A stretch of 64,000 bases of DNA, from the IMG/VR virus record IMGVR_UViG_3300048091_000424, one strand, 5' to 3'. Below are positions 7,477-49,930 of the stretch, piece by piece. The translations under genes were made by a program, and so were the position numbers. The DNA comes from a virus (taxonomy: Duplodnaviria > Heunggongvirae > Uroviricota > Caudoviricetes). The notes beneath the pieces are model-generated. The model made no database searches. It was not told the origin of the DNA and was given only the letters and a program-made list of their open reading frames with translations. How positions within the stretch are numbered: the stretch's first letter is position 1; the number at the start of each line of letters is the position of its first letter.

Positions 7477-8361
7477 TCAAGATTCCAGTGAAAGTTCACC
7501 GATAAATTCGCGCCAGGCCACCTTGCCCACGGCATCGAATAACCTCAAGGCGTGACAGGCGTAGAGACCTGATGTTGAGAACGCATTAAGCTCAACGACC
7601 TTTGGCTCGCCGGCGAACAGGCCAACATCACAGGTGTACGCCAGGTCAACCTGCCACGGTAGTGCCGCGACCTGCTGTGCGACCTCAAGACACAGCTTAC
7701 TCACCACCGGATCAATACTGCGCTGCCCATTTACATGGTAGCGACTGCCGGTGACCACCTTCCCTTCGACAATGAAGAACCGGTATTCAGCGCGAATGCT
7801 TTGGGCTGGCGCAATCAATACACGGGTATCGTCTGTGACCGAGGTCAGTTGGCGAAGACTGTTGATCTCAACCCCTGCGGTTTCCTGTTCCAGGCATAGC
7901 CCGGTGAACGTCTTTCCTCCTGAGTCAGGTCGGACAAACAGGCGGCTGTCGCCGAAGAGTCGATATATCTGATCACGCCTGCGCACGAAATCACCGAACG
8001 GCAGGTACACCCCTTCTGCATTGCCCAGGAGCTCCAAGGGTAAGCGAGGCATGTAGTGGGAGCACGCCAGGCGATCCTTGGTGTAGTAGGCGCCGGGAAT
8101 GGCGTTTGAGTTACGCAGGCGCTGTTCAACGAACCCAATGCTGCCGTAGAGCACGATGCATTCATCGGCGCTGTAAGCTCGTAGGGGCTCTCTGTACGTA
8201 TCACGGCAGTACTCGGTCACCTCAACGGTGTAACCTAGCCTGCGCAGCGCCATGGGTAGCCTGACGTGGGGTGTGTCGGCGAGCATCCCCTGATCTATGA
8301 CAAAGGTGACCGAGCCACGGCCACGATTCGCCAAGGGTTGCGGCGGGATCACGGGGCGCAT
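7477..8361 (-). CDS. ATP-grasp domain protein
   Basis: ...EYRFFIVEGKVVTGSRY..., plus the C-terminal ...VVELNAFSTSGLY... segment, is typical of ATP-grasp ligases. Its start overlaps the stop of the small upstream ORF. Confidence 0.6.
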   Translation of the reverse strand: MRPVIPPQPLANRGRGSVTFVIDQGMLADTPHVRLPMALRRLGYTVEVTEYCRDTYREPLRAYSADECIVLYGSIGFVEQRLRNSNAIPGAYYTKDRLACSHYMPRLPLELLGNAEGVYLPFGDFVRRRDQIYRLFGDSRLFVRPDSGGKTFTGLCLEQETAGVEINSLRQLTSVTDDTRVLIAPAQSIRAEYRFFIVEGKVVTGSRYHVNGQRSIDPVVSKLCLEVAQQVAALPWQVDLAYTCDVGLFAGEPKVVELNAFSTSGLYACHALRLFDAVGKVAWREFIGELSLES

Positions 8362-15433: not shown

Positions 15434-16462
15434 ATGAACACCCAATACCTTTTTGATGCCGAACAGTTCCGCGACGCCGTGTTCAAACGGGATCGACGTG
15501 TCTGTGTGTTTTGCTCGGCACCGGCTGAATCAGCCGCACACATCCTGGAATCCCAGCTGTGGGACGACGGCGGCCACTACCTGCAAAATGGCGCCAGCGT
15601 CTGCAGAGAGCACCGACTCGCTTTTGAAATGACACATCTGTTGCCTAAGCAAATTCGGATTGCTGCTCGTATCCCGGAAATACTGGTACCTCAGGACTAC
15701 TTTCCGACCACGCCCTATGACCACTGGGGCAACGAGATTTTGCACAATGGAATGCGTCTGCGCGGTGAGCTGTTTCTCGATGATAATGTCCAGCAGCTAC
15801 TGAGCCAGGGCCGCGTACTGGATCAGTTCACCTGGCAGGTGAAGTACCCAACCACCCCTCACCTACCATGGTCAGAAGGGATTCAGCGGGATGACCGCCT
15901 TCTGCGTGACGTGCTTCACTTCCTGGGTAAGCGCGTCGTCGTCACAATGAAGATGGATGGCGAAAACACCTCGCTTTACAGTGACTACATCCACGCTCGT
16001 TCGCTGGATTCAAGGCACCACGAATCTCGTGACTGGGTGAAAAACTTCTGGGCCAGATTCAAATGGCAAATCCCTGAAGGTTGGAGGATCTGCGGTGAAA
16101 ACCTGTTTGCCCAGCACTCGATCCGGTACAACGATCTGGTGAGCTACTTCAATGGCTTCTCGATCTGGAACGAACGCAACAAGGCGTTGGACTGGGATGA
16201 CACCCTGGGCTACTTCGACATCCTTGGGATCACCCCGGTCGAGGAAATCTACCGTGGCGTCTTTGACCAGAAGTTGATCCACACAGCCTACCTGGAAAAG
16301 TCAAAAGGCAAGGTGTGCGAAGGCTATGTCGTACGCGTGGAGGACGAGTTCGACTTCCGAGATTTCCGCCGTTCGGTGGCCAAGTTTGTCCGCAAAGACC
16401 ATGTGCAAACCAAAGATCACTGGATGACCAGTGAGATCATCCCCAACAAGCTGAAAGGTTGA
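15434..16462 (+). CDS. HNH-like N-terminal domain fused to an RNA-ligase-family nucleotidyltransferase
   Basis: CVFC...H...N..CREH is HNH-like. VVVTMKMDGENTSLY is motif I (KxDGxN). EGYVVR is motif IV. KFVRKDH is motif V. Confidence 0.6.
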   Translation: MNTQYLFDAEQFRDAVFKRDRRVCVFCSAPAESAAHILESQLWDDGGHYLQNGASVCREHRLAFEMTHLLPKQIRIAARIPEILVPQDYFPTTPYDHWGNEILHNGMRLRGELFLDDNVQQLLSQGRVLDQFTWQVKYPTTPHLPWSEGIQRDDRLLRDVLHFLGKRVVVTMKMDGENTSLYSDYIHARSLDSRHHESRDWVKNFWARFKWQIPEGWRICGENLFAQHSIRYNDLVSYFNGFSIWNERNKALDWDDTLGYFDILGITPVEEIYRGVFDQKLIHTAYLEKSKGKVCEGYVVRVEDEFDFRDFRRSVAKFVRKDHVQTKDHWMTSEIIPNKLKG

Positions 16463-17983: not shown

Positions 17984-18143
17984 ATCCTTTGAACTTGGGG
18001 TTTTCCACGTGCACAAGGATGAGCAGTGGATCACCTTCGAGGTCATTCAGGAGGATCTGAAGGGTCGCTGAGATACCGATGTGTATTATCTTGATTCCTG
18101 TATACAGCTAAACACAGAATAATATGAAATTCATATGAAGTTA

Positions 18144-18169
18144 ATAGGATAATAATATTATTATCCTAT
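18144..18169. promoter_or_regulatory. perfect 26-bp palindrome in an AT-rich leader (candidate operator)
   Basis: ataggataataat|attattatcctat. A second inverted repeat, atgtaaaaa-N6-tttttacat, lies nearby at 18231..18254. Confidence 0.35.
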
Positions 18170-18343
18170 GTATATCGAGTCATGAGTTACTAATTATCTT
18201 CAAGCTGATACTAGTGCAGTCATGGCTCTCGATGTAAAAATGTAAGTTTTTACATAGGATTAAAAAATATTATTTGATGTATTGACCTGCAAAAATCTCA
18301 TCATTACCATTTTATGAAGCTGAAGCTCATATAGGTAATCTTT

Positions 18344-28173: not shown

Positions 28174-28662
28174 TTGAACTCGCAATTGCATTTGATCGCT
28201 GCTTTCGGGATCCAGGGTCAGGTCGGATTGAAAAACTCCAGCCCCTGGAACATCCCAGCAGAGCAGCAACACTCGACTGAAACGATTGCAAACGCGACCG
28301 TGATCATGTGCCTCCCGACGTTTCAATCGCTTGGCTATGCGTTGCCGAAGCGTCGAAACATTGTCGTGACGGATGAAATCGGCTTTTTGCCTGGATGCGA
28401 GGTGGTCACCACCATCGAACAGGCGCTCGAGCTGGTCAAGCATGATCGACGTGTTTATGTAATCGGCGGCGTGCCACTGTGGAGCCAAGCACTGGCCCAT
28501 GCCACCCATTTGGTGTTGAGTGAGGTCAACTACAACGGCGAGGCCGACACCCTGCTGCCTGAGCCTTTCTTCACCCGTGTGCGCAGCGAGTTTCGCTTGA
28601 ACCATCTGCGGCATCAGGAAGAGTTCACGGCAACCTACTGGATAAGACATGGTCACCGCTAA
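28174..28662 (+). CDS. folA: dihydrofolate reductase-like protein
   Basis: LIAAFGIQGQVGLKNSSPWNIP..., NIVVT, VYVIGG and EADTLLPE track the DHFR fold consensus (IAA..G..PW, R.NIV.S, IGGG, EGDT.FP). Confidence 0.6.
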   Translation: MNSQLHLIAAFGIQGQVGLKNSSPWNIPAEQQHSTETIANATVIMCLPTFQSLGYALPKRRNIVVTDEIGFLPGCEVVTTIEQALELVKHDRRVYVIGGVPLWSQALAHATHLVLSEVNYNGEADTLLPEPFFTRVRSEFRLNHLRHQEEFTATYWIRHGHR

Positions 28663-29152
28663 CACCGCTGAAGCTCAACCGAATCCCCGCCGCTTGCTCC
28701 ATTTCATCGCCTGCGGCTTCGGCTCCGGGCTGATGCGCCCCGCTCCTGGTACTTGGGGTAGCTTAGCGGCTATCCCCTTTATCCTGGCTCTCCAGGGGCT
28801 CTCTACGCCGGTTTATACATTGATCCTTTTCTTAGCCACTTTGTTTGGCATTTGGGTTTGCCAGCGTGTGTCCGAGGATCTTGGCGTTGACGATCACCCA
28901 GCCATTGTTTGGGATGAATTTGTCGGCATGGGCTTTGCCCTGATCTGCCTGCCAGCAGAACATCAATTCCTGGGCGCAGCCCTGGGCTTTGGTTTGTTCC
29001 GCTTTTTCGACGTCGTGAAGCCAGGCCCGGTGGGCTGGCTGGACAGAAATCTAAGGGGCGGCATGGGCATCATGCTTGATGATGTTCTCGCGGGTATTTT
29101 TGCAGGCGTCTGCCTCCAACTGGCATTCTTTGGTTGGGCCTGGATGATTTAG
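28649..29152 (+). CDS. pgpA: phosphatidylglycerophosphatase A
   Basis: FGSGL..APGTWGSLAA, FRFFDVVKPGP and the C-terminal membrane segment are the PgpA signature. Confidence 0.85.
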   Translation: MVTANTAEAQPNPRRLLHFIACGFGSGLMRPAPGTWGSLAAIPFILALQGLSTPVYTLILFLATLFGIWVCQRVSEDLGVDDHPAIVWDEFVGMGFALICLPAEHQFLGAALGFGLFRFFDVVKPGPVGWLDRNLRGGMGIMLDDVLAGIFAGVCLQLAFFGWAWMI

Positions 29153-33125: not shown

Positions 33126-33154
33126 TTGACACCTTTTTTGGTGGCCAGTAGACT
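33126..33154 (+). promoter_or_regulatory. sigma70-like promoter for the tRNA-Asn/Leu/Leu operon
   Basis: TTGACA, a 17-nt spacer, then TAGACT, about 18 nt upstream of the tRNA 5' end. Confidence 0.4.
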
Positions 33155-33171
33155 TGATCTTGCAAGGCCAT

Positions 33172-33247
33172 TCCGTGATAGCTCAGTCGGTAGAGCATCG
33201 GACTGTTAATCCGAGTGTCCCTGGTTCGAGTCCAGGTCACGGAGCCA
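33172..33247 (+). tRNA. tRNA-Asn (GTT)
   Basis: Acceptor stem TCCGTGA/TCACGGA. Anticodon loop CTGTTAA. T-loop GGTTCGAGTCC. CCA encoded. Confidence 0.9.
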
Positions 33248-33259
33248 GCCTTACGCACT

Positions 33260-33346
33260 GCCCGAATGGCGAAACTGGTAGACGCATGGGACTTAAAATC
33301 CTCTGCTCGAAAGGGCGTCCCGGTTCGACTCCGGGTTCGGGCACCA
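33260..33346 (+). tRNA. tRNA-Leu (TAA), class II
   Basis: Acceptor GCCCGAA/TTCGGGC. Loop CTTAAAA. Long variable arm. Near-identical scaffold to E. coli Leu(UAA). Confidence 0.8.
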
Positions 33347-33356
33347 AGAATTCAAA

Positions 33357-33440
33357 GCCGAAGTGGTGGAATTGGTAGACGCGGCTGATTCAAAATCAGT
33401 TGCCTACGGCGTGCGGGTTCGAGTCCCGCCTTCGGCACCA
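33357..33440 (+). tRNA. tRNA-Leu (CAA), class II
   Basis: Acceptor GCCGAAG/CTTCGGC. Anticodon arm CTGA-TTCAAAA-TCAG. Confidence 0.9.
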
Positions 33441-33447
33441 AACAAGA

Positions 33448-33476
33448 AAGGCCCAGCATATGTCTGGGCCTTTTTC
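33448..33476 (+). terminator. rho-independent terminator after the tRNA operon
   Basis: aaggcccag-catatgt-ctgggcctt, then ttttt. Confidence 0.75.
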
Positions 33477-33741
33477 ATTTTACTGCGCCCTGGATGTCGT
33501 CATCATGAAACGCCTGTTTAGTCTGTTGTCCGAGCTTACGCGCCCTGCCCCACAACCAAACCTGGAAGGTCGCATCGAACCTACCGTGCCACGGCACATA
33601 GCAGCCTCACCCTTCGAAATGGCCTCAGATGAGCTGGCCAGAGATGGCGCCCGTCGCTTCAGCAATATCGATCAATTACGCGACAGAGTGAAGGGAACGC
33701 TTAGTCCCAATAATTAATTTCAAATATTTTTAAAATTGCTG

Positions 33742-33771
33742 TTGACAGTGTTTCAGGATTAGTTCTATCTT
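33742..33771 (+). promoter_or_regulatory. sigma70-like promoter upstream of sORF1, with an AT-rich UP-like tract
   Basis: TTGACA, a 17-18-nt spacer, then TATCTT. Confidence 0.4.
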
Positions 33772-33803
33772 AGCTACATCACTAGTTCAACCGAGTTTTT
33801 GAC

Positions 33804-33896
33804 ATGACCACTTTCACTCAACGCGATGATGCACGGCAGCAGGACGAACGTCCTGATATCTGCTCGCGTGATGAACGCTCTGTCAAAACTTTCTAG
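33804..33896 (+). CDS. sORF1: 30-aa highly charged peptide (MTTFTQRDDARQQDERPDICSRDERSVKTF)
   Basis: Not in the ORF track. Paralogous to sORF2, sharing the M(T/A)T(F/Y)T start, the gacgaacgtc (DER) core and a single Cys. A strong terminator follows. Confidence 0.35.
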   Translation: MTTFTQRDDARQQDERPDICSRDERSVKTF

Positions 33897-33937
33897 CATC
33901 TCAGATTTGAGGGCTAGACGCCCTCTTCTGCTAAAAC

Positions 33938-33970
33938 AGCCGGGGGCCCAAACCTCCGGCTTTTTGTTTT
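33938..33970 (+). terminator. rho-independent terminator after sORF1
   Basis: 8-bp GC-rich stem gccggggg/cctccggc, followed by tttttgtttt. Confidence 0.75.
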
Positions 33971-33983
33971 AAGGATTTCTATC

Positions 33984-34061
33984 ATGGCTACTTACACTAA
34001 CTTCGCTGACCGGACTGATCGTGACGAACGTCGCGATGAGCGCGAGTGCCTGACTGTCTAG
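33984..34061 (+). CDS. sORF2: 25-aa highly charged peptide (MATYTNFADRTDRDERRDERECLTV)
   Basis: SD AAGGA lies 8 nt upstream. Paralog of sORF1. Followed by a strong terminator. Confidence 0.4.
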   Translation: MATYTNFADRTDRDERRDERECLTV

Positions 34062-34097
34062 TGCCGTGATACGGGGCTAGAAGCCCCCAGACCGACG

Positions 34098-34128
34098 AAC
34101 CGGGGGCCATGGCTCCCGGTTTTTTTTG
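34098..34128 (+). terminator. rho-independent terminator after sORF2
   Basis: aaccggggg-ccatgg-ctcccggtt, followed by tttttttt. Confidence 0.75.
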
Positions 34129-34139
34129 AGTGTTATTTT

Positions 34140-34215
34140 GTCCCTCTCGTCTAATGGCTCAGGATATCTGGTTCTCAACCAGGTGATTGGGGTTCGAGTC
34201 CCCAGAGGGAAACCA
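34140..34215 (+). tRNA. tRNA-Glu-like (anticodon CTC) with a G1.A72 mismatch
   Basis: The scaffold GTCCCTCTCGTCTAATGGCTCAGGA...GGGGTTCGAGTCCCC is Glu-like. Anticodon loop TTCTCAA. 3' acceptor strand GAGGGAA pairs with 5' GTCCCTC except at 1:72. Confidence 0.5.
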
Positions 34216-34292
34216 ATTAGTGGTCATTGCCAGGTTAGAGGCGATGCCAGCAAGGAATAAAGCGCTCATTAAGGTGAGTGTCAAGTTTACAA

Positions 34293-34368
34293 GGCCCGTT
34301 AGCCAAGTTGGAAAGGTACGTGACTGTCTATCACGCATGCAGGGGTTCGAGCCCCCTACGGGTCGCCA
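34293..34368 (+). tRNA. atypical tRNA, anticodon GTC (Asp-like), class-II-like D-arm, copy 1
   Basis: Acceptor GGCCCGT/ACGGGTC. Anticodon arm CGTGA-CTGTCTA-TCACG (U at position 37). T-arm AGGGG-TTCGAGC-CCCCT. Confidence 0.5.
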
Positions 34369-34413
34369 CTTAGTTACACTTTTCGAAACTGAAAAGTGTG
34401 TTTTAAAAGTTAC

Positions 34414-34489
34414 GCTCCATTCGTCTAGCGGCCTAGGACGGAGGGTCTTCGCCCCTCTAACACCGGTTCGAATCCGGTATGGAGAACCA
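34414..34489 (+). tRNA. tRNA-Glu (TTC), copy 1 (G1.A72 mismatch)
   Basis: GCTCCATTCGTCTAGCGGCCTAGGACGGAGGG-TCTTCGC-CCCTC... Compensatory C2:G71 relative to copy 2, but 1:72 is G.A. Confidence 0.6.
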
Positions 34490-34529
34490 GTTATAGCTAC
34501 ACGTTTTATAAAGGTTTATAAGTTACAAA

Positions 34530-34604
34530 GGCCCGTTAGCCAAGTTGGAAAGGCATATGACTGTCTATCATACATCAGGGGTTCGAGCCCCCTACGGGTC
34601 GCCA
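34530..34604 (+). tRNA. atypical tRNA, anticodon GTC (Asp-like), copy 2
   Basis: Same as copy 1, with compensatory anticodon-stem changes (TATGA/TCATA versus CGTGA/TCACG). This argues the structure is under selection. Confidence 0.5.
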
Positions 34605-34652
34605 TTTAAGTTGCACTCTGATGCATTTCAAAGTGTTGGTTTTAATAGTTTT

Positions 34653-34728
34653 GTTCCATTCGTCTAGTGGCCTAGGACAGAGGGTCTTCACCCCTCAAAC
34701 GCCGGTTCGAGTCCGGTATGGAACTCCA
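34653..34728 (+). tRNA. tRNA-Glu (TTC), copy 2 (canonical)
   Basis: Acceptor GTTCCAT/ATGGAAC. Loop TCTTCAC. Perfect cloverleaf. Confidence 0.85.
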
Positions 34729-34812
34729 ATTTTGTTCGTTGTGTGGAGTAATTTCTGTGTCGGCAATCGAAACATAGACACAATTAAAGCTGTCACTTTG
34801 GACACAAAACAC

Positions 34813-34890
34813 GGTTTGTTAGCTCAGCTGGATATGAGCGCCGGCTTGTCACGCCGGAGGTCGCGGGTTCGAGCCCCGTACAAACCGCCA
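34813..34890 (+). tRNA. tRNA-Asp (GTC), canonical
   Basis: Acceptor GGTTTGT/ACAAACC. Anticodon arm CCGGC-TTGTCAC-GCCGG. Confidence 0.85.
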
Positions 34891-34896
34891 CTTACC

Positions 34897-34973
34897 GCTT
34901 CTGTAGCTCAACTGGATAGAGCAGCGCCCTACGAAGGCGAAGGTTAGAGGTTCGAGCCCTCTCAGAAGCACCA
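34897..34973 (+). tRNA. tRNA-Arg (ACG)
   Basis: Acceptor GCTTCTG/CAGAAGC. Loop CTACGAA. Scaffold like E. coli Arg(ACG). Confidence 0.85.
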
Positions 34974-35004
34974 TTTCAAACGCCTGGCTCACCCCAGACG
35001 ATCT

Positions 35005-35083
35005 ACCCCAGTCGCCAAACTGGATTAAGGCACCGGTCTTCGAAACCGGTCATGTGCAAGTTCGAATCTTGCCTGGGGTACCA
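35005..35083 (+). tRNA. tRNA-like, anticodon TCG (Arg-like), atypical D-arm
   Basis: Acceptor ACCCCAG/CTGGGGT. Anticodon arm CCGGT-CTTCGAA-ACCGG. T-arm GCAAG-TTCGAAT-CTTGC. The 7-nt 5' acceptor string is duplicated 7 nt upstream. Confidence 0.5.
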
Positions 35084-36323: not shown

Positions 36324-37262
36324 TCATTCATTGACTGATATGGTGGGTGTAGCGGCCTTCTCACTGATCATCACGGTCAGCAAGTTGGTCACGAGCGTGG
36401 CTTTTTGCGACTCGGTGAACTCGACCGTAGGGCCATGATCGCTTTCTTCACCCAGTTGCTTGATCACCTGACGTACCAGGGGTACGGAAGCATCCAGGAT
36501 CGCAGTACGGGCCGAGACCATCGCGCTCGCCTGCTGGCGCAGAAGCATCAAGCCAGCGATCTCCTGCGCATACGCAATATTGCTCAACCGGACATCGAGT
36601 ACACGAATACCGATGATGAACAGCTTCTTCTGGATCTTCTCCCGCATTTCATTCGCGATTTGTTCGGAGTTCTGGCGAAGGCAGGTTTTATCCGTCTTCT
36701 CCTTCATCTCCGCATCCGACAGATCGAATGGGTAGATCGACACCGATTCACGCAGGACGACTTCCATGGCATTGGCGACGATTGAATCCGGGTCATCGGC
36801 GTTAAAAATGTAGGACTCAGGGTTTACCACCCGATAGTTCAAGACAGCGCCAACGGTGATTGGACGTCCATCACTGTCGGTCATTTTAACGCTGGCCGTG
36901 GTTAGGGTCTTGGCTTTCAGACTGACCCTGGAACCGTCCATGAAGGGGTTAATCCAGAAAAAACCACTATCGAGCGCCGAGCCTTTCCGAGTGCCGAAAA
37001 ACGTCAGCACCACCGATTCGTTCGGGTTGATCTGCGTGAATCCACTCCACGACAGCATGAGTACAATCAGTGCCAGCGGGCACGCAAAGTCATAAATGTC
37101 GCCGATAAGATACGCGTGACTGCCATCAGCACGAATACCGTAGCCAATGAACGGCATGTAGATGATGCAGGCCAATGCCAGGATCATCACCAATACCATG
37201 GCACCACCGTTGAAGGGGGTGTAGCGTCGGATTTCATGCTTATGGTCTTGCTCTTGTTCCAT
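36324..37262 (-). CDS. SPFH/band-7 (stomatin/prohibitin-like) domain protein
   Basis: N-terminal TM, then ...LTFFGTRKG...VLNYRVVNPESYIF..., typical of SPFH. Confidence 0.7.
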   Translation of the reverse strand: MEQEQDHKHEIRRYTPFNGGAMVLVMILALACIIYMPFIGYGIRADGSHAYLIGDIYDFACPLALIVLMLSWSGFTQINPNESVVLTFFGTRKGSALDSGFFWINPFMDGSRVSLKAKTLTTASVKMTDSDGRPITVGAVLNYRVVNPESYIFNADDPDSIVANAMEVVLRESVSIYPFDLSDAEMKEKTDKTCLRQNSEQIANEMREKIQKKLFIIGIRVLDVRLSNIAYAQEIAGLMLLRQQASAMVSARTAILDASVPLVRQVIKQLGEESDHGPTVEFTESQKATLVTNLLTVMISEKAATPTISVNE

Positions 37263-42872: not shown

Positions 42873-44021
42873 TTACGCCACGCCCACGGCTTCACTCACT
42901 CCCGCCGTCGGCAACATTACCGCTTTCGACCACGAGAACAATCGGCGTCCGATCTGAGGCGTCGGCAACTCGCCAATGCTCTGACCTTTAGACGCGTGCA
43001 GCTTCAACCACAGCCACGGCAGGTTAACCCCGCACAGCAGACTAAGGCCCAGGCCATCACTGAAGCGTGGGCTGGCGCTGAGCACCTTACAGCGACCCTC
43101 GCTGTCGAGCTTGAATTTGGCGTTGAACAAACCGGAAAATCCAAATTCACGGACGATTATTTGCAGCTGACGGCGCAGCTCCGGGTTGTCGACAATTAAC
43201 TCACCCTCCTCCTCGCCTTCCGGTTTCTGGCGAGCGACGTAGGTCACCAGCTGACCTTTCCACGCCAGGCAATCCACGGAGAATTCTTGGCCAGGCAGGT
43301 ACTCCATCACGATCCAGTTATTGGCGGCGCCGGCTTTGATCGAAGCCTGGTGCGCCAGCAAACCGAAATCAGGGAAGCGCATGACCTTGTTCTCGGGAAA
43401 GAACAGTTGCTGGTGTGGATCAGGGTGGTCGTCGAAACGGTAGAACGCTTTGCCGAGTAGCCGATTGGACGGTTTTGCGCACACGGCTTTAAGTTCGTCC
43501 GGAACAGCCACCATGCGTGTTTTGATGGTCGCCACGCTGTCATTCAACTGGGTCTCATAGTCGTCGTTCCAGATCAGCCAGGCCGGCACCATGTCGCCAT
43601 AGTAGGCCTGCTCAAGCCGGTGGTAGAACTCAGCCTTAACGTCGAGCACCGCCAGTTCCTTTGGCGAGCAGCTGTACAGCAACTCCACGCCGATGGCCCG
43701 GAAGTCTTCACGGCGCTCGATCATCGCTGCATAGAAACGACTGACGACGATACAGTCGATGCCATGCTCGGCGGCATAGCCCAGGGCCCAGTCAGTGTAA
43801 TCCTGCGCCGAAATGCTCGAAGCTTCGACCGCGACCTGGTCAGCCAGGGTGAAACCGATGAAGTTCGGATTGTGGTGCGTCACATGGATTTGTTGCAGAA
43901 TACGCTCGCTTTCATGGAGCATCGACTCATGTTGCTTGATGGACTGAATGGCTTCGGCGATCACTGCCATTCCGTCGTTGAACCAGACCTTGAGCTTCAC
44001 GTACACCACACCCTGAGCCAT
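42873..44021 (-). CDS. ATP-grasp domain enzyme
   Basis: NWIVMEYLPGQEFSVD and flanking segments match the ATP-grasp large-domain pattern. Confidence 0.6.
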   Translation of the reverse strand: MAQGVVYVKLKVWFNDGMAVIAEAIQSIKQHESMLHESERILQQIHVTHHNPNFIGFTLADQVAVEASSISAQDYTDWALGYAAEHGIDCIVVSRFYAAMIERREDFRAIGVELLYSCSPKELAVLDVKAEFYHRLEQAYYGDMVPAWLIWNDDYETQLNDSVATIKTRMVAVPDELKAVCAKPSNRLLGKAFYRFDDHPDPHQQLFFPENKVMRFPDFGLLAHQASIKAGAANNWIVMEYLPGQEFSVDCLAWKGQLVTYVARQKPEGEEEGELIVDNPELRRQLQIIVREFGFSGLFNAKFKLDSEGRCKVLSASPRFSDGLGLSLLCGVNLPWLWLKLHASKGQSIGELPTPQIGRRLFSWSKAVMLPTAGVSEAVGVA

Positions 44022-48413: not shown

Positions 48414-49820
48414 TTAACGCCCTGGCCCGAAGTCAGTTTCCGGCTGCTCCTTGAGAAAGCGACTAACCGCATCGCGACGAGCTGTCCTCACCGCCGTCTT
48501 GGCAGCCTCCAGAATCAACGCCTTATCCGGTGTCCGGTTCCTTGCAATGGCCCGTGCCTCTTCCTTCGCCATGGTGGCCTGCATGATCGGGCCTGGCTTG
48601 ACCGAACTCACCGCTTCCATGGCGCTCAGCAGGTAAGCTCCCTGCAGATACGTTTCTGGCCTTTTGGTCGAACCATCCTTTTGACGAATACGTCGGCCAA
48701 AGTTATCCGCTGCGCACATCGTCGCCACATCCCCTAAAAAGGCCTTGTCGTGGCGCTGAATTCGATCAAGGTCAAGGCGCTCATATAGCGCCTGAAGGCC
48801 CTGGCGACCTGCTGACGAAATGCGGTGTACTTCTTGATGGGTCAACGCACATTTGTGCACAAAGTACTGGATTTCAGACGGCATCTTGATGCGGGCGGCC
48901 AGCGTGTCAAGAAGCCCCTCAAAACGTTCTACATTTTCGTGCCCATGGTGATGGCCACGAACGGAGCCGTCCGCGTACCACAGCAAATCGGCTGGTGTCT
49001 TGATCTTGCCCAGGTCATGGAGCAAAGCAGCCATGCGAATCCGCAGAGAGCTCGCCGTTGAATGGCCCGTCGTTAGCTTGGCCGCTTCATCGAGAACCAT
49101 CTTGGTATGGATCCAGACATCACCCTCGGCGTGGTAATCATCCCGCTGTGGAACGCCCTTCATCTGCTCCAGTTCAGGGAACAGGACTTTCAGCGCCCCA
49201 CAGGCATCCAGCACATCAAAATAGACGTGTGGGTTGGGTGTCAGCATCGCCTTCTCGGTTTCTTTCCAAATCCGTTCTGGCTTGATGTTGGGCTTGCCGC
49301 TCGGCGTCGTTGGATTGAGCATCCCTTTGGACGTCATCTCAGTCATCAGAGACATGGTCTCTGGCGCCACAGAGAAGTCGTACCTTGCCGCGAAGCGGGC
49401 TACGCGCAGAATGCGCAACGGATCCTCAGCAAAGCTCGGGCCGACATGCCGCAGCGTGCGATTTTGAAGGTCTTGTTGGCCGCCGTAGGGATCGAACACC
49501 GTTCCGTCATCCAGCTCGGCCATGGCGTTGATGGTGCAATCCCGGCGCCCAAGATCTTGCTCCAGCGTGATGCCTTCCCACTTGTACTTGAAGTCGTTGT
49601 AACCATCACCGGTGCTGATTTCCGAGCGGCCAAGGGCGTACTCGTCGCCGGTTTCTGGGTGCAGAAAGACCGGGAAATCCCCGCCCACCTGGGTAAAGCC
49701 GCGACTCAACATTGACTCCGGTGATTCGCCGATCACCACATAGTCGATATCCGTGGGCTCAAGGCCAAGCAGCCTATCCCGGACACAACCCCCCACTCTG
49801 TAGCACTTCTCAAATGTCAT
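48414..49820 (-). CDS. cca: CCA tRNA nucleotidyltransferase with HD domain
   Basis: GGCVRDRLLG...DIDYVV N-terminal pol-beta motif and a C-terminal HD region. SD GGGAGGA before ATG 49820. Confidence 0.85.
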   Translation of the reverse strand: MTFEKCYRVGGCVRDRLLGLEPTDIDYVVIGESPESMLSRGFTQVGGDFPVFLHPETGDEYALGRSEISTGDGYNDFKYKWEGITLEQDLGRRDCTINAMAELDDGTVFDPYGGQQDLQNRTLRHVGPSFAEDPLRILRVARFAARYDFSVAPETMSLMTEMTSKGMLNPTTPSGKPNIKPERIWKETEKAMLTPNPHVYFDVLDACGALKVLFPELEQMKGVPQRDDYHAEGDVWIHTKMVLDEAAKLTTGHSTASSLRIRMAALLHDLGKIKTPADLLWYADGSVRGHHHGHENVERFEGLLDTLAARIKMPSEIQYFVHKCALTHQEVHRISSAGRQGLQALYERLDLDRIQRHDKAFLGDVATMCAADNFGRRIRQKDGSTKRPETYLQGAYLLSAMEAVSSVKPGPIMQATMAKEEARAIARNRTPDKALILEAAKTAVRTARRDAVSRFLKEQPETDFGPGR

Positions 49821-49930
49821 AGGCCTATATCCTCCCTGACGGGTACCAAGTGCGTGTGTCTTACGCACGCGCTCACATGTTAAATTCAAGTATGACTCAC
49901 GCCGCAACGGCAAAGAAGAGATTCTCGTGC

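Follow-up and report, generated by a model that had tools for sequence, protein, structure and literature searches.

Predicted leader-peptide attenuators in front of Asp, Glu and Arg tRNA genes on Pseudomonas megaplasmids

We analyzed a DNA stretch of 64,000 nucleotides (nt) (IMG/VR record IMGVR_UViG_3300048091_000424; hereafter the window), which, judging by its sequence, is part of a ~1.08-Mb megaplasmid of Pseudomonas serbica, of the pMPPla107 type. The window carries, at positions 33172-35083 (+ strand), an array of 11 tRNA genes in the order Asn(GTT), Leu(TAA), Leu(CAA), Glu(CTC), Asp(GTC), Glu(TTC), Asp(GTC), Glu(TTC), Asp(GTC), Arg(ACG) and Arg(TCG). The ~700-bp gap between Leu(CAA) and Glu(CTC) (33441-34139), which was passed over in an initial annotation of the window, holds a regulatory leader, the most informative feature of the locus. 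It is probable, on the basis of the modeling presented below, that the unit transcribed from the leader promoter (P2) is controlled by ribosome-mediated attenuation of the his/ilv type, which acts here on tRNA genes and closes a feedback loop based on decoding capacity.

The gap contains two open reading frames (ORFs) encoding short leader peptides, each followed by a switch region whose segments 1 to 5 can pair in several ways:

33505..33717, + strand: ORF0, 70 amino acids (aa); variable sites by codon position 22/12/54
33718..33771, + strand: AT-rich UP-like tract and promoter P2 (-35 sequence TTGACA at 33742, 18-nt spacer, -10 sequence TATCTT ending at 33771)
33804..33896, + strand: leader ORF 1 (MTTFTQRDDARQQDERPDICSRDERSVKTF, then stop), with 12 of 30 residues being Asp, Glu or Arg (40%)
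33892..33969, + strand: switch 1, with helices 1:2 (33892-33918), 2:3 (33909-33925), 3:4 (33920-33947) and 4:5 (33938-33961), then a U-run
33984..34061, + strand: leader ORF 2 (MATYTNFADRTDRDERRDERECLTV, then stop), with 12 of 25 residues being Asp, Glu or Arg (48%); Shine-Dalgarno sequence AAGGA upstream
34058..34127, + strand: switch 2, with helices 1:2 (34058-34080), 2:3 (34073-34087), 3:4 (34083-34107) and 4:5 (34097-34122), then U8

Transcription from P2 would start at ~33778. No other promoter-like site was detected within the array by a consensus scan; the promoter and terminator scans were simple consensus scans, which missed some promoters and terminators.

The Asp+Glu+Arg content of the two leader peptides ranks first and second among the 304 ORFs of 20-45 aa that start with ATG in the window (binomial P of 4e-3 for ORF 1 and 6e-4 for ORF 2, against a background of 18.2%). 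The codons concerned (GAY, GAA, GAG, CGY and CGG) are read by the anticodons of the downstream tRNA genes (GUC, UUC, CUC, ACG and UCG). Both stop codons (33894-33896 and 34059-34061) sit inside helix 1:2 of the respective switch. Comparison across lineages revealed that the insertions and deletions within the leader ORFs are in frame (+24, +9 and +3 nt), as against 1-2 nt outside the ORFs, and that the Asp and Arg codons of the leaders undergo synonymous changes; a short translatable ORF is predicted to be intact in all nine lineages described below.

Most leaders have conserved a Cys codon (UGC) that lies 4-5 codons ahead of the stop (ECLTV, ACALV, SCALG, PCACI, TCAFV), as seen at positions 34047-34049 of the window and in the records L010, L020, L021 and L022. 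Compared with Rfam at E <= 10, the leader gave sub-threshold, terminator-like noise only and matched no known RNA family. We also considered, and rejected, a role of the peptides as precursors of ribosomally synthesized and post-translationally modified peptides, or as substrates of tRNA-dependent peptide modification: such enzyme domains were absent from the neighbors tested, most of which gave no Pfam, PHROG or NCBIfam match of any kind, and the relay of terminators would be left unexplained.

The module is present in nine lineages, including plasmids pMPPla107, pBASL58, pPL1 and that of Pseudomonas sp. FeN3W, with a total of 16 leader units containing 40-59% Asp, Glu and Arg. Downstream of these leaders there are 73 tRNA genes (27 Glu, 24 Asp and 22 Arg), and none of any other specificity; their order, copy number and tRNA bodies vary between lineages. 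The whole 2-kb array is syntenic with, and ~79% identical to, a region of P. silesiensis plasmid pPL1, the only one of 72,556 plasmids to match the serbica-type leader, and it is also carried by contigs L003, L004, L006 and L007. A genome-wide motif scan identified the plasmid of P. serbica IT-P366 (1,059,468 bp), together with a chance match in an Acidimicrobiaceae metagenome-assembled genome (L009), which has neither a U-run nor an ORF. The corresponding metagenome scan gave two further lineages (L010 and L013), 8 of its 10 matches being fortuitous and situated in DNA of 61-68% G+C, and three additional plasmids (FeN3W, pMPPla107 and pBASL58) were reached through tRNA matches of low identity. 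None of the phage records covers more than single canonical tRNAs, and viral scans with three patterns retrieved no relative (L024 and L011 are one and the same contig, and the matches L025-L030 represent ordinary hairpins). These further forms of the module are composed as follows:

L013: 2 leader units; Asp-like, Glu, Asp, Arg, Arg
L010: 2 leader units with very different peptides; Arg(ACG), Glu(TTC), Arg(CCT), Asp, Arg(TCT), Glu(CTC), Asp, Arg(CCG)
Pseudomonas sp. FeN3W plasmid: 1 leader unit; 11 tRNAs, in tandem Glu-Asp-Arg repeats
pMPPla107: 2 leader units; 11 tRNAs
pBASL58: 1 leader unit; 7 tRNAs

AGA codons occur in the leaders of L010 only, and Arg(UCU) and Arg(CCU) in the array of L010 only. 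The distance from the U-run to the first tRNA gene is 0-13 nt in most lineages. The arrangement AAATATTTTTAAAA...TTGACA of the P2 region is also found in pPL1, L003, L004, pMPPla107 and L010, with weaker variants in FeN3W and pBASL58. Two types of cluster with other amino acid specificities were examined: neither Asn-Leu-Leu (window) nor Leu-Leu-Met (pBASL58) is preceded by a leader, and the promoter is located 15-17 nt before the first tRNA gene.

Four consecutive, mutually exclusive hairpins are predicted in both leaders, in all lineages, with energies of ~-11 to -14 (1:2), ~-10 to -16 (2:3), ~-8.5 to -13 (3:4) and ~-10 to -19 kcal/mol (4:5). The respective values for the P. serbica group are ~-12, -10.5, -12.5 and -17 to -19 kcal/mol, and the terminators of the window, T1 (33938-33961) and T2 (34097-34122), fold at -16.6 and -18.6 kcal/mol, each being followed by a U-run. 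These energies are close to those of the classical trp attenuator hairpins (~-11, -12 and -20 kcal/mol). Substitutions between lineages tend to spare the stems. The switch regions are the most conserved DNA of the locus (3% and 11% variable sites, versus 41% in ORF0), and within switch 2 only 1 of 48 stem positions is variable, compared with 7 of 17 unpaired positions (Fisher P = 2e-4).

Covariation was assessed in an alignment of 11 switch units, using slid registers and 500 shuffles as controls. The antitermination fold pairs 96.8% of the cells, versus 32-61% in the slid controls; 6 of its pairs are changed on both sides, which was equalled by 2 of the 500 shuffles, and its covariation score (0.293 versus 0.156) was reached by none of them. 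The termination fold pairs 94.5% of the cells. The core of helix 1:2 covaries between families (CUAG:CUAG, GCUUAGC:GCUAAGC, CAUUUAG:CUAAAUG, CGUUUAG:CUAAACG and GCUAG:CUAGC).

The effect of the position of the ribosome was modeled by partition-function folding of a transcript ending at segment 4, with the ribosome footprint masked. A mask placed on any codon up to and including the last Asp, Glu or Arg codon gave a probability (P) of the antiterminator of ~0.9-1.0 in 14 of the 16 units, and a mask on the last 2-5 codons or on the stop gave 0-0.1 in 9 units, 0.3-0.5 in 4 and 0.6-0.8 in 2. For the leader transcript of the locus, P(3:4) was near 1.0 upstream and below 0.1 on the last 2-4 codons and the stop, where helix 2:3 reaches ~0.9. 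The Asp, Glu and Arg codons end exactly where masking ceases to favor the antiterminator. In 15 of the 16 units helix 1:2 includes the stop codon, which in the remaining unit lies 8 nt upstream of the helix. At equilibrium, the full-length transcript adopts the terminator form (P of 0.93-0.98); with no ribosome on the leader the antiterminator forms (P(3:4) of 0.8-1.0), and trp-like superattenuation is therefore not predicted. A long-range helix between the start codon and segment 1, which would provide such superattenuation, appears in the minimum free energy fold of leader 2; it is unsupported by a G-to-A change in pPL1/L003, does not dominate at the decision point, and was rejected.

According to the proposed model, the locus would consist of two transcription units: Asn-Leu-Leu would be transcribed directly from its own promoter (P1), and the eight Glu, Asp and Arg genes would be transcribed from P2 only by read-through of two tandem attenuators. 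With ample decoding of Asp, Glu and Arg codons, the ribosome would reach the stop and cover segment 1, permitting helices 2:3 and 4:5 to form and transcription to terminate before the tRNA genes. A ribosome stalled at an Asp, Glu or Arg codon would leave segment 1 free, so that helix 1:2 forms and segment 3 captures segment 4; with 3:4 in place the terminator would be absent and RNA polymerase would enter the array. Since the products of the array would decode the leader itself, this would constitute negative feedback, fitting plasmid tRNA synthesis to demand. The model implies that the leader ORFs are translated, that stalling would govern termination in vivo, and that the physiological signal would be a shortage of charged Asp, Glu and Arg tRNAs, which might originate from the codon demand of the plasmid in a foreign host or from tRNA-targeting toxins. 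The locus displays in silico (i) a leader ORF, (ii) cognate codons, (iii) an intrinsic terminator before the first gene, (iv) an exclusive antiterminator and (v) the expected stall/stop geometry. The regulated genes are tRNAs, and not genes of amino acid biosynthesis or related enzymes, and it is in this respect that the system departs from the known attenuators. Full-text literature searches yielded no report of a leader-peptide attenuator preceding tRNA genes, although such an absence is not proof.

Several points weigh against this model. The evidence is wholly computational, and, given the homology of the lineages, the number of independent events behind the covariation is small. Unlike in trp or his, an untranslated leader is predicted to read through, which means that termination needs efficient translation of the leader, and the Shine-Dalgarno sequence of leader 1 of the window is weak. 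The mask folding, itself an equilibrium approximation of a kinetic process, does not give a clean switch in every unit: masking the stop codon lowers P(3:4) no further than 0.3-0.5 in leader 1 of L010, leader 2 of L013, FeN3W and leader 2 of pMPPla107, and leaves it at 0.6-0.8 in leader 2 of both L004 and L010, while in leader 1 of L013 and in pBASL58 the antiterminator is not uniformly favored along the upstream codons. The gap past the last terminator amounts to 78 nt in pMPPla107, where it is AT-rich, and to 35 nt in L013, and could hide a weak promoter. The terminators of pMPPla107 and pBASL58 were not listed by the simple scan, although their folding energies are -15 to -19 kcal/mol and a run of U6-U7 comes after them. 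Finally, extra tRNA does not relieve amino acid starvation, which makes the natural inducing signal uncertain, and the model does not account for the restriction to Asp, Glu and Arg.

The conserved, specific match of Asp/Glu/Arg leaders to Asp/Glu/Arg tRNAs disfavors, as the main explanation, the other accounts that may be given of the locus. One of these, which we consider unlikely, is a general sensor of translational stress, in which any slowing of the ribosome on the leader (by antibiotics, global starvation or lost initiation) would relieve termination and Asp, Glu and Arg would not be the specific signal. The folding model does give read-through whenever the ribosome misses the stop, even without translation, and an inducible tRNA array answering general translational stress is known in Anabaena (PMC8421152). 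Such a sensor would not, however, require that Asp, Glu and Arg be retained at 40-59% in 16 otherwise diverged leader units in agreement with all 73 tRNA identities, that AGA codons follow the presence of Arg(UCU), or that the Asp, Glu and Arg codons stop exactly at the boundary of productive stalling; the two ideas are compatible if general stress is an additional input to attenuation. It is decidedly improbable that there is no regulation at all, the small ORFs being independent or non-functional, the terminators ordinary, and the array transcribed from an undetected promoter or by leaky read-through. Crude consensus scans, by which some promoters and terminators were missed, and the 78-nt AT-rich gap of pMPPla107 speak for this option, but the U-run and the first tRNA gene are only 0-13 nt apart in most lineages, helices 1:2 and 3:4 are needless for a plain terminator and yet conserved and covarying, and the position of the stop codon within helix 1:2 and the conservation of the switch regions also speak against it.

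Very little probability attaches to a nascent-peptide sensor, in which the acidic and basic leader peptides would act in the exit tunnel (as in mgtL-type Mg2+ sensing, or as an arrest peptide) and report an ionic or metabolic signal. Asp/Glu-rich nascent chains do destabilize translating ribosomes, and the conserved Cys codon near the stop would suit a peptide of this kind; against it, Arg is as enriched as Asp and Glu, so that the peptides are roughly net-neutral, their composition is conserved and the order of residues is not, and the exclusive link with Asp, Glu and Arg tRNAs is left unexplained. Least probable of all, in our estimation, is the interpretation offered by the initial annotation, i.e. 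a redundant array inserted beside horizontally acquired AT-rich effector loci, with a 3′ integration scar, supplying codon-specific capacity to AT-rich genes or acting as tRNA-derived regulators. Codon use in the window (GAT 50%, GAA 53%, CGA 13%) is richer in A/T-ending codons than that of Pseudomonas chromosomes, and tRNA supplementation has been proposed for this plasmid family (Smith et al. 2019, PMC6482414). However, the window derives from a megaplasmid of nearly uniform G+C content (51-57%), and the array is syntenic in all relatives and belongs to the plasmid backbone. The supposed scar is a real duplication of ACCCCAG (34991 and 35005, the latter being the 5′ end of the last tRNA gene), but the upstream copy is absent from three other lineages and unique to the window. 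Moreover, both Asp codons are read by a single anticodon, GUC, and the presence of the Asp genes therefore cannot be put down to codon bias; tRNA-derived regulators are unsupported, and the leaders would be unaccounted for.

The tRNA genes themselves were re-examined with ARAGORN and with the Rfam covariance model RF00005, which returned the same set, in the order and with the anticodons given by the initial annotation. All 11 genes, the atypical ones included, scored 43.8-72 bits, above the gathering score of 29, and all encode CCA. The features of the array and of its first unit are as follows:

33126..33154, + strand: promoter P1 (TTGACA-17-TAGACT), serving the Asn-Leu-Leu cluster; first tRNA gene 17 nt downstream, no leader
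33172-33247, + strand: tRNA-Asn(GTT) (ARAGORN, Rfam)
33260-33346, + strand: tRNA-Leu(TAA) (ARAGORN, Rfam)
33357-33440, + strand: tRNA-Leu(CAA) (ARAGORN, Rfam)
33445..33475, + strand: bidirectional intrinsic terminator, closing the Asn-Leu-Leu unit
34140..34215, + strand: tRNA-Glu(CTC), with G1.A72 and A73; starts 12 nt past the U-run of switch 2
34293..34368, + strand: Asp-like tRNA(GTC) copy 1, with a 3-bp D-stem, loop CUGUCUA (U37, A38) and G73
34414..34489, + strand: tRNA-Glu(TTC) copy 1, with C33, G1.A72 and A73
34530..34604, + strand: Asp-like tRNA(GTC) copy 2, with U37 and compensatory anticodon-stem differences from copy 1
34653..34728, + strand: tRNA-Glu(TTC) copy 2, with C33, G1-C72, U2-A71 and U73
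34813..34890, + strand: canonical tRNA-Asp(GTC), whose counterpart in pPL1 is a pseudogene
34897..34973, + strand: tRNA-Arg(ACG) (ARAGORN, Rfam)
35005..35083, + strand: tRNA-Arg(TCG), with A1-U72, A73 and a tRNA-Gln-like D-arm; stem pairs invariant in four lineages

The Asn-Leu-Leu cluster (33172..33440) is a transcription unit of its own. Within the second unit, the ~237-bp repeat noted initially measures 237-239 bp. Cloverleaf parsing bore out both G1.A72 mismatches, in Glu(CTC) and in copy 1 of Glu(TTC); of these two genes, cmscan aligned the latter and flagged its 1:72 pair. The Asp-like genes were correctly described as having a short D-stem, which consists of three Watson-Crick pairs and an A13.A22 apposition, and U37 (anticodon loop CUGUCUA); the label "class-II-like" is misleading for them, since their variable arm is short. 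The paired differences between copies also hold: C27-G43 and G28-C42 of the first Asp-like gene are replaced by U27-A43 and A28-U42 in the second, and C2-G71 by U2-A71 in the Glu(TTC) genes. Parsing and cmscan additionally revealed C33 in place of U33, which is near-universal in tRNAs, in both Glu(TTC) genes, a feature overlooked in the initial annotation.

Comparison of four lineages, which differ at ~16-18% of the sites of this region, indicated that the atypical members are selected genes and not pseudogenes, as initially argued. Glu(CTC) retains G1.A72 while 6 other stem pairs change in a compensatory manner, C33 is found in 8 of 8 Glu(UUC) genes, and all 17 stem pairs of Arg(TCG) are invariant. 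In pPL1 (L001, ~7756-7812) loss of the anticodon arm has turned the ortholog of the canonical tRNA-Asp(GTC) into a pseudogene, whereas the atypical genes remain intact. In Asp(GUC), the loop CUGUCUA with U37 is combined with no fewer than three distinct tRNA bodies (P. serbica group, FeN3W and pMPPla107), G1.A72 of Glu(CUC) is shared by the P. serbica group and pBASL58, and some Glu(CUC) genes have a pyrimidine at position 37.

In a number of genes the tRNA bodies appear shuffled with respect to the anticodons (window, 35005-35083 and 34293-34604; L010, 7317-7392; L020, 3715-3788). A tRNA-Gln-like D-arm and anticodon stem are seen in Arg(TCG) and the Asp-like genes, the D-arm of the latter (GCCAAxxGGxxAAGGC) resembling the bacterial tRNA-Gln scaffold, as in Escherichia coli tRNA-Gln, and a tRNA-Glu-like D-arm is seen in the Asp(GTC) genes of L010 and FeN3W. 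Such mismatches of body and anticodon suggest anticodon switching (tRNA gene remolding) within these arrays. The spacers following each Asp-like gene (34369-34413 and 34605-34652) contain an AU-rich hairpin (e.g. ACACUUUUC...GAAAAGUGU) and then a U-rich tract; a similar AU-rich element is present on pPL1, and these hairpins may be processing sites. In FeN3W (L020, 4077-4151) a tandem copy of Arg(ACG) lacks 1 nt of the 3′ acceptor strand (CCTGGGTGCCA versus CCTGGGGTGCCA), which represents either a decaying repeat or a sequencing error.

The conservation of atypical anticodon loops (C33, U37/A38 and a pyrimidine at 37) allows a further reading, which we propose by analogy and regard as rather unlikely, namely that the module provides inducible counter-defense. 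The leaders would sense the depletion of host tRNA-Asp, -Glu or -Arg, for instance by anticodon nucleases or other tRNA-targeting toxins, released by competitors or belonging to defense systems of the host, and would switch on resistant plasmid tRNAs (C33, U37/A38, G1.A72), with an RNA ligase and CCA repair as a back-up. If true, this would be a sensor-effector immunity circuit built wholly from a leader peptide and tRNAs. A gene for a phage-type RNA ligase is located at 15434-16462 (+ strand; Pfam PF09414, E = 7e-28; phrog_24030, E = 3e-119), between orphan ORFs without a family match, and its sequence makes a tRNA-repair function possible. Another gene of the window (48414-49913, - strand; NF008137, 411 bits, below the 451-bit cut-off) specifies a divergent CCA-adding/repair enzyme that is multifunctional and includes an HD domain, and that is present although all tRNA genes of the array already encode CCA.

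The attenuation model has its closest structural counterparts in the enterobacterial attenuators (his, thr, leu, ilvGMEDA, ilvBN, pheA and trp), with which the leaders share a codon-enriched ORF, exclusive hairpins leading to a terminator, and a decision made by the position of the ribosome. Multivalent sensing of several amino acids resembles ilv and thr, and the relay of hairpins resembles his. The enterobacterial systems control biosynthetic enzymes, whereas here the targets are tRNAs, so that the sensor codons are read by the regulated product itself; regulation involves Asp, Glu and Arg, for which we know of no leader and found none matching in Rfam. The stop codon is situated inside segment 1, with the regulatory codons upstream of it, and not, as in Enterobacteria, within that segment. 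An extra relay helix is present, through which the untranslated leader would read through rather than be superattenuated; two attenuators often occur in tandem, and the module is plasmid-borne. T-box riboswitches likewise couple, through a 5′ leader, the charging or availability of a specific tRNA to the choice between terminator and antiterminator. Their ligand is uncharged tRNA, bound directly; they have no ORF, are found mainly in Firmicutes, and control genes of aminoacyl-tRNA synthetases, biosynthesis and transport. The T-box model (RF00230) did not match the leader, either at the gathering threshold or at E <= 10.

The closest functional precedent is the inducible L-array (trn operon) of Anabaena sp. 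PCC 7120, likewise a horizontally spread supernumerary cluster, which is normally silent and is induced by impaired translation. It comprises 23 tRNAs for many amino acids and is controlled at the promoter, where a putative repressor binds direct repeats (Santamaria-Gomez et al. 2021, PMC8421152); the control predicted here is by attenuation, codon-specific, and concerns 5-11 tRNAs for three amino acids. By the definition of Tran et al. (2016, PMC4758250), which sets minima of 20 tRNA genes and of 2 such genes per kb, the array of the window (11 genes in 1.9 kb) has the density of a tRNA array unit, or L-array, but not the number of genes. Evasion of tRNA-targeting nucleases has been proposed or demonstrated for tRNAs of phages and mobile elements (van den Berg et al. 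2023, PMC10264068), including phage tRNAs that counter retron and PARIS systems (PMC11555353, PMC11464382). They too are tRNAs of mobile elements in which the anticodon is kept and other loop positions are changed; the atypical positions here are C33 of Glu(UUC), U37/A38 of Asp(GUC) and the pyrimidine at position 37 of some Glu(CUC). The element described here is a megaplasmid and not a phage, and no regulated expression has been described for the phage tRNAs. Plasmids of the pMPPla107 family carry 44-54 tRNA loci each, with repeated tRNA-Glu(ttc), and these tRNAs have been suggested to offset translational cost (Smith, Leligdon and Baltrus 2019, PMC6482414); that study concerns the same replicon family and describes no leader ORFs, attenuators or atypical tRNA features. 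Its text implies that pMPPla107 lacks Glu and Asp tRNAs, and the text and table swap the tRNA counts of two plasmids. ARAGORN identified 5 Glu and 3 Asp tRNA genes at ~908.4-909.4 kb of pMPPla107 (L021, NZ_CP031226.1), and the first 50 kb of this plasmid yielded no tRNA genes.

ORF0, located upstream of P2, reads as protein-coding, because its variable sites fall mostly at third codon positions. Among 5.8 billion proteins its homologs form two clusters only; the P. serbica group and L013 possess this ORF, which is not found upstream of the leaders in L010, FeN3W, pMPPla107 and pBASL58. Further upstream, five tandem ORFs of 373-400 aa (21513-27514, + strand) encode a diverged family of paralogs with 22-37% identity, four of which contain a DLGL motif; none of the four queried members matched Pfam (22645-23841 was left out of the query). 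These are probably the "DLGL genes" that the initial annotation treated as neighbors of the array, although they lie 6-12 kb upstream and have no evident link with it. Genes for dihydrofolate reductase and a PgpA-like phosphatase (28174-29152, + strand), labeled by Pfam on the identical metagenome contig L006, are situated 4-5 kb upstream of the array, and an SPFH/Band-7 gene (36324-37262) and a Ter-associated ATP-grasp gene (42873-44021) lie beyond it. At 18001-20000 the G+C content decreases to 41.7%, compared with ~52-53% elsewhere in the window; this stretch, which overlaps an ORF of 807 aa (18344-20767) with a weak AAA_22 match only, may be a more recently acquired island.

The differential regulation of individual bacterial tRNA genes is largely unknown, as pointed out in the 2021 study of the inducible array (PMC8421152). 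The locus analyzed here offers a simple mechanism, in which a leader ORF would gauge the decoding of given codons and the answer would be transcription of the tRNAs that read them; a closed loop of this kind is apparently undescribed, as far as the literature was searched. C33, a pyrimidine at position 37 and G1.A72 are selected variants at almost invariant positions and may serve as probes of decoding, modification and nuclease recognition, and the module would be a compact, portable part for synthetic biology, making the supply of tRNA responsive to codon demand. For the plasmids themselves, such control could explain how megaplasmids of ~1 Mb limit their translational cost and work in hosts with differing tRNA pools.

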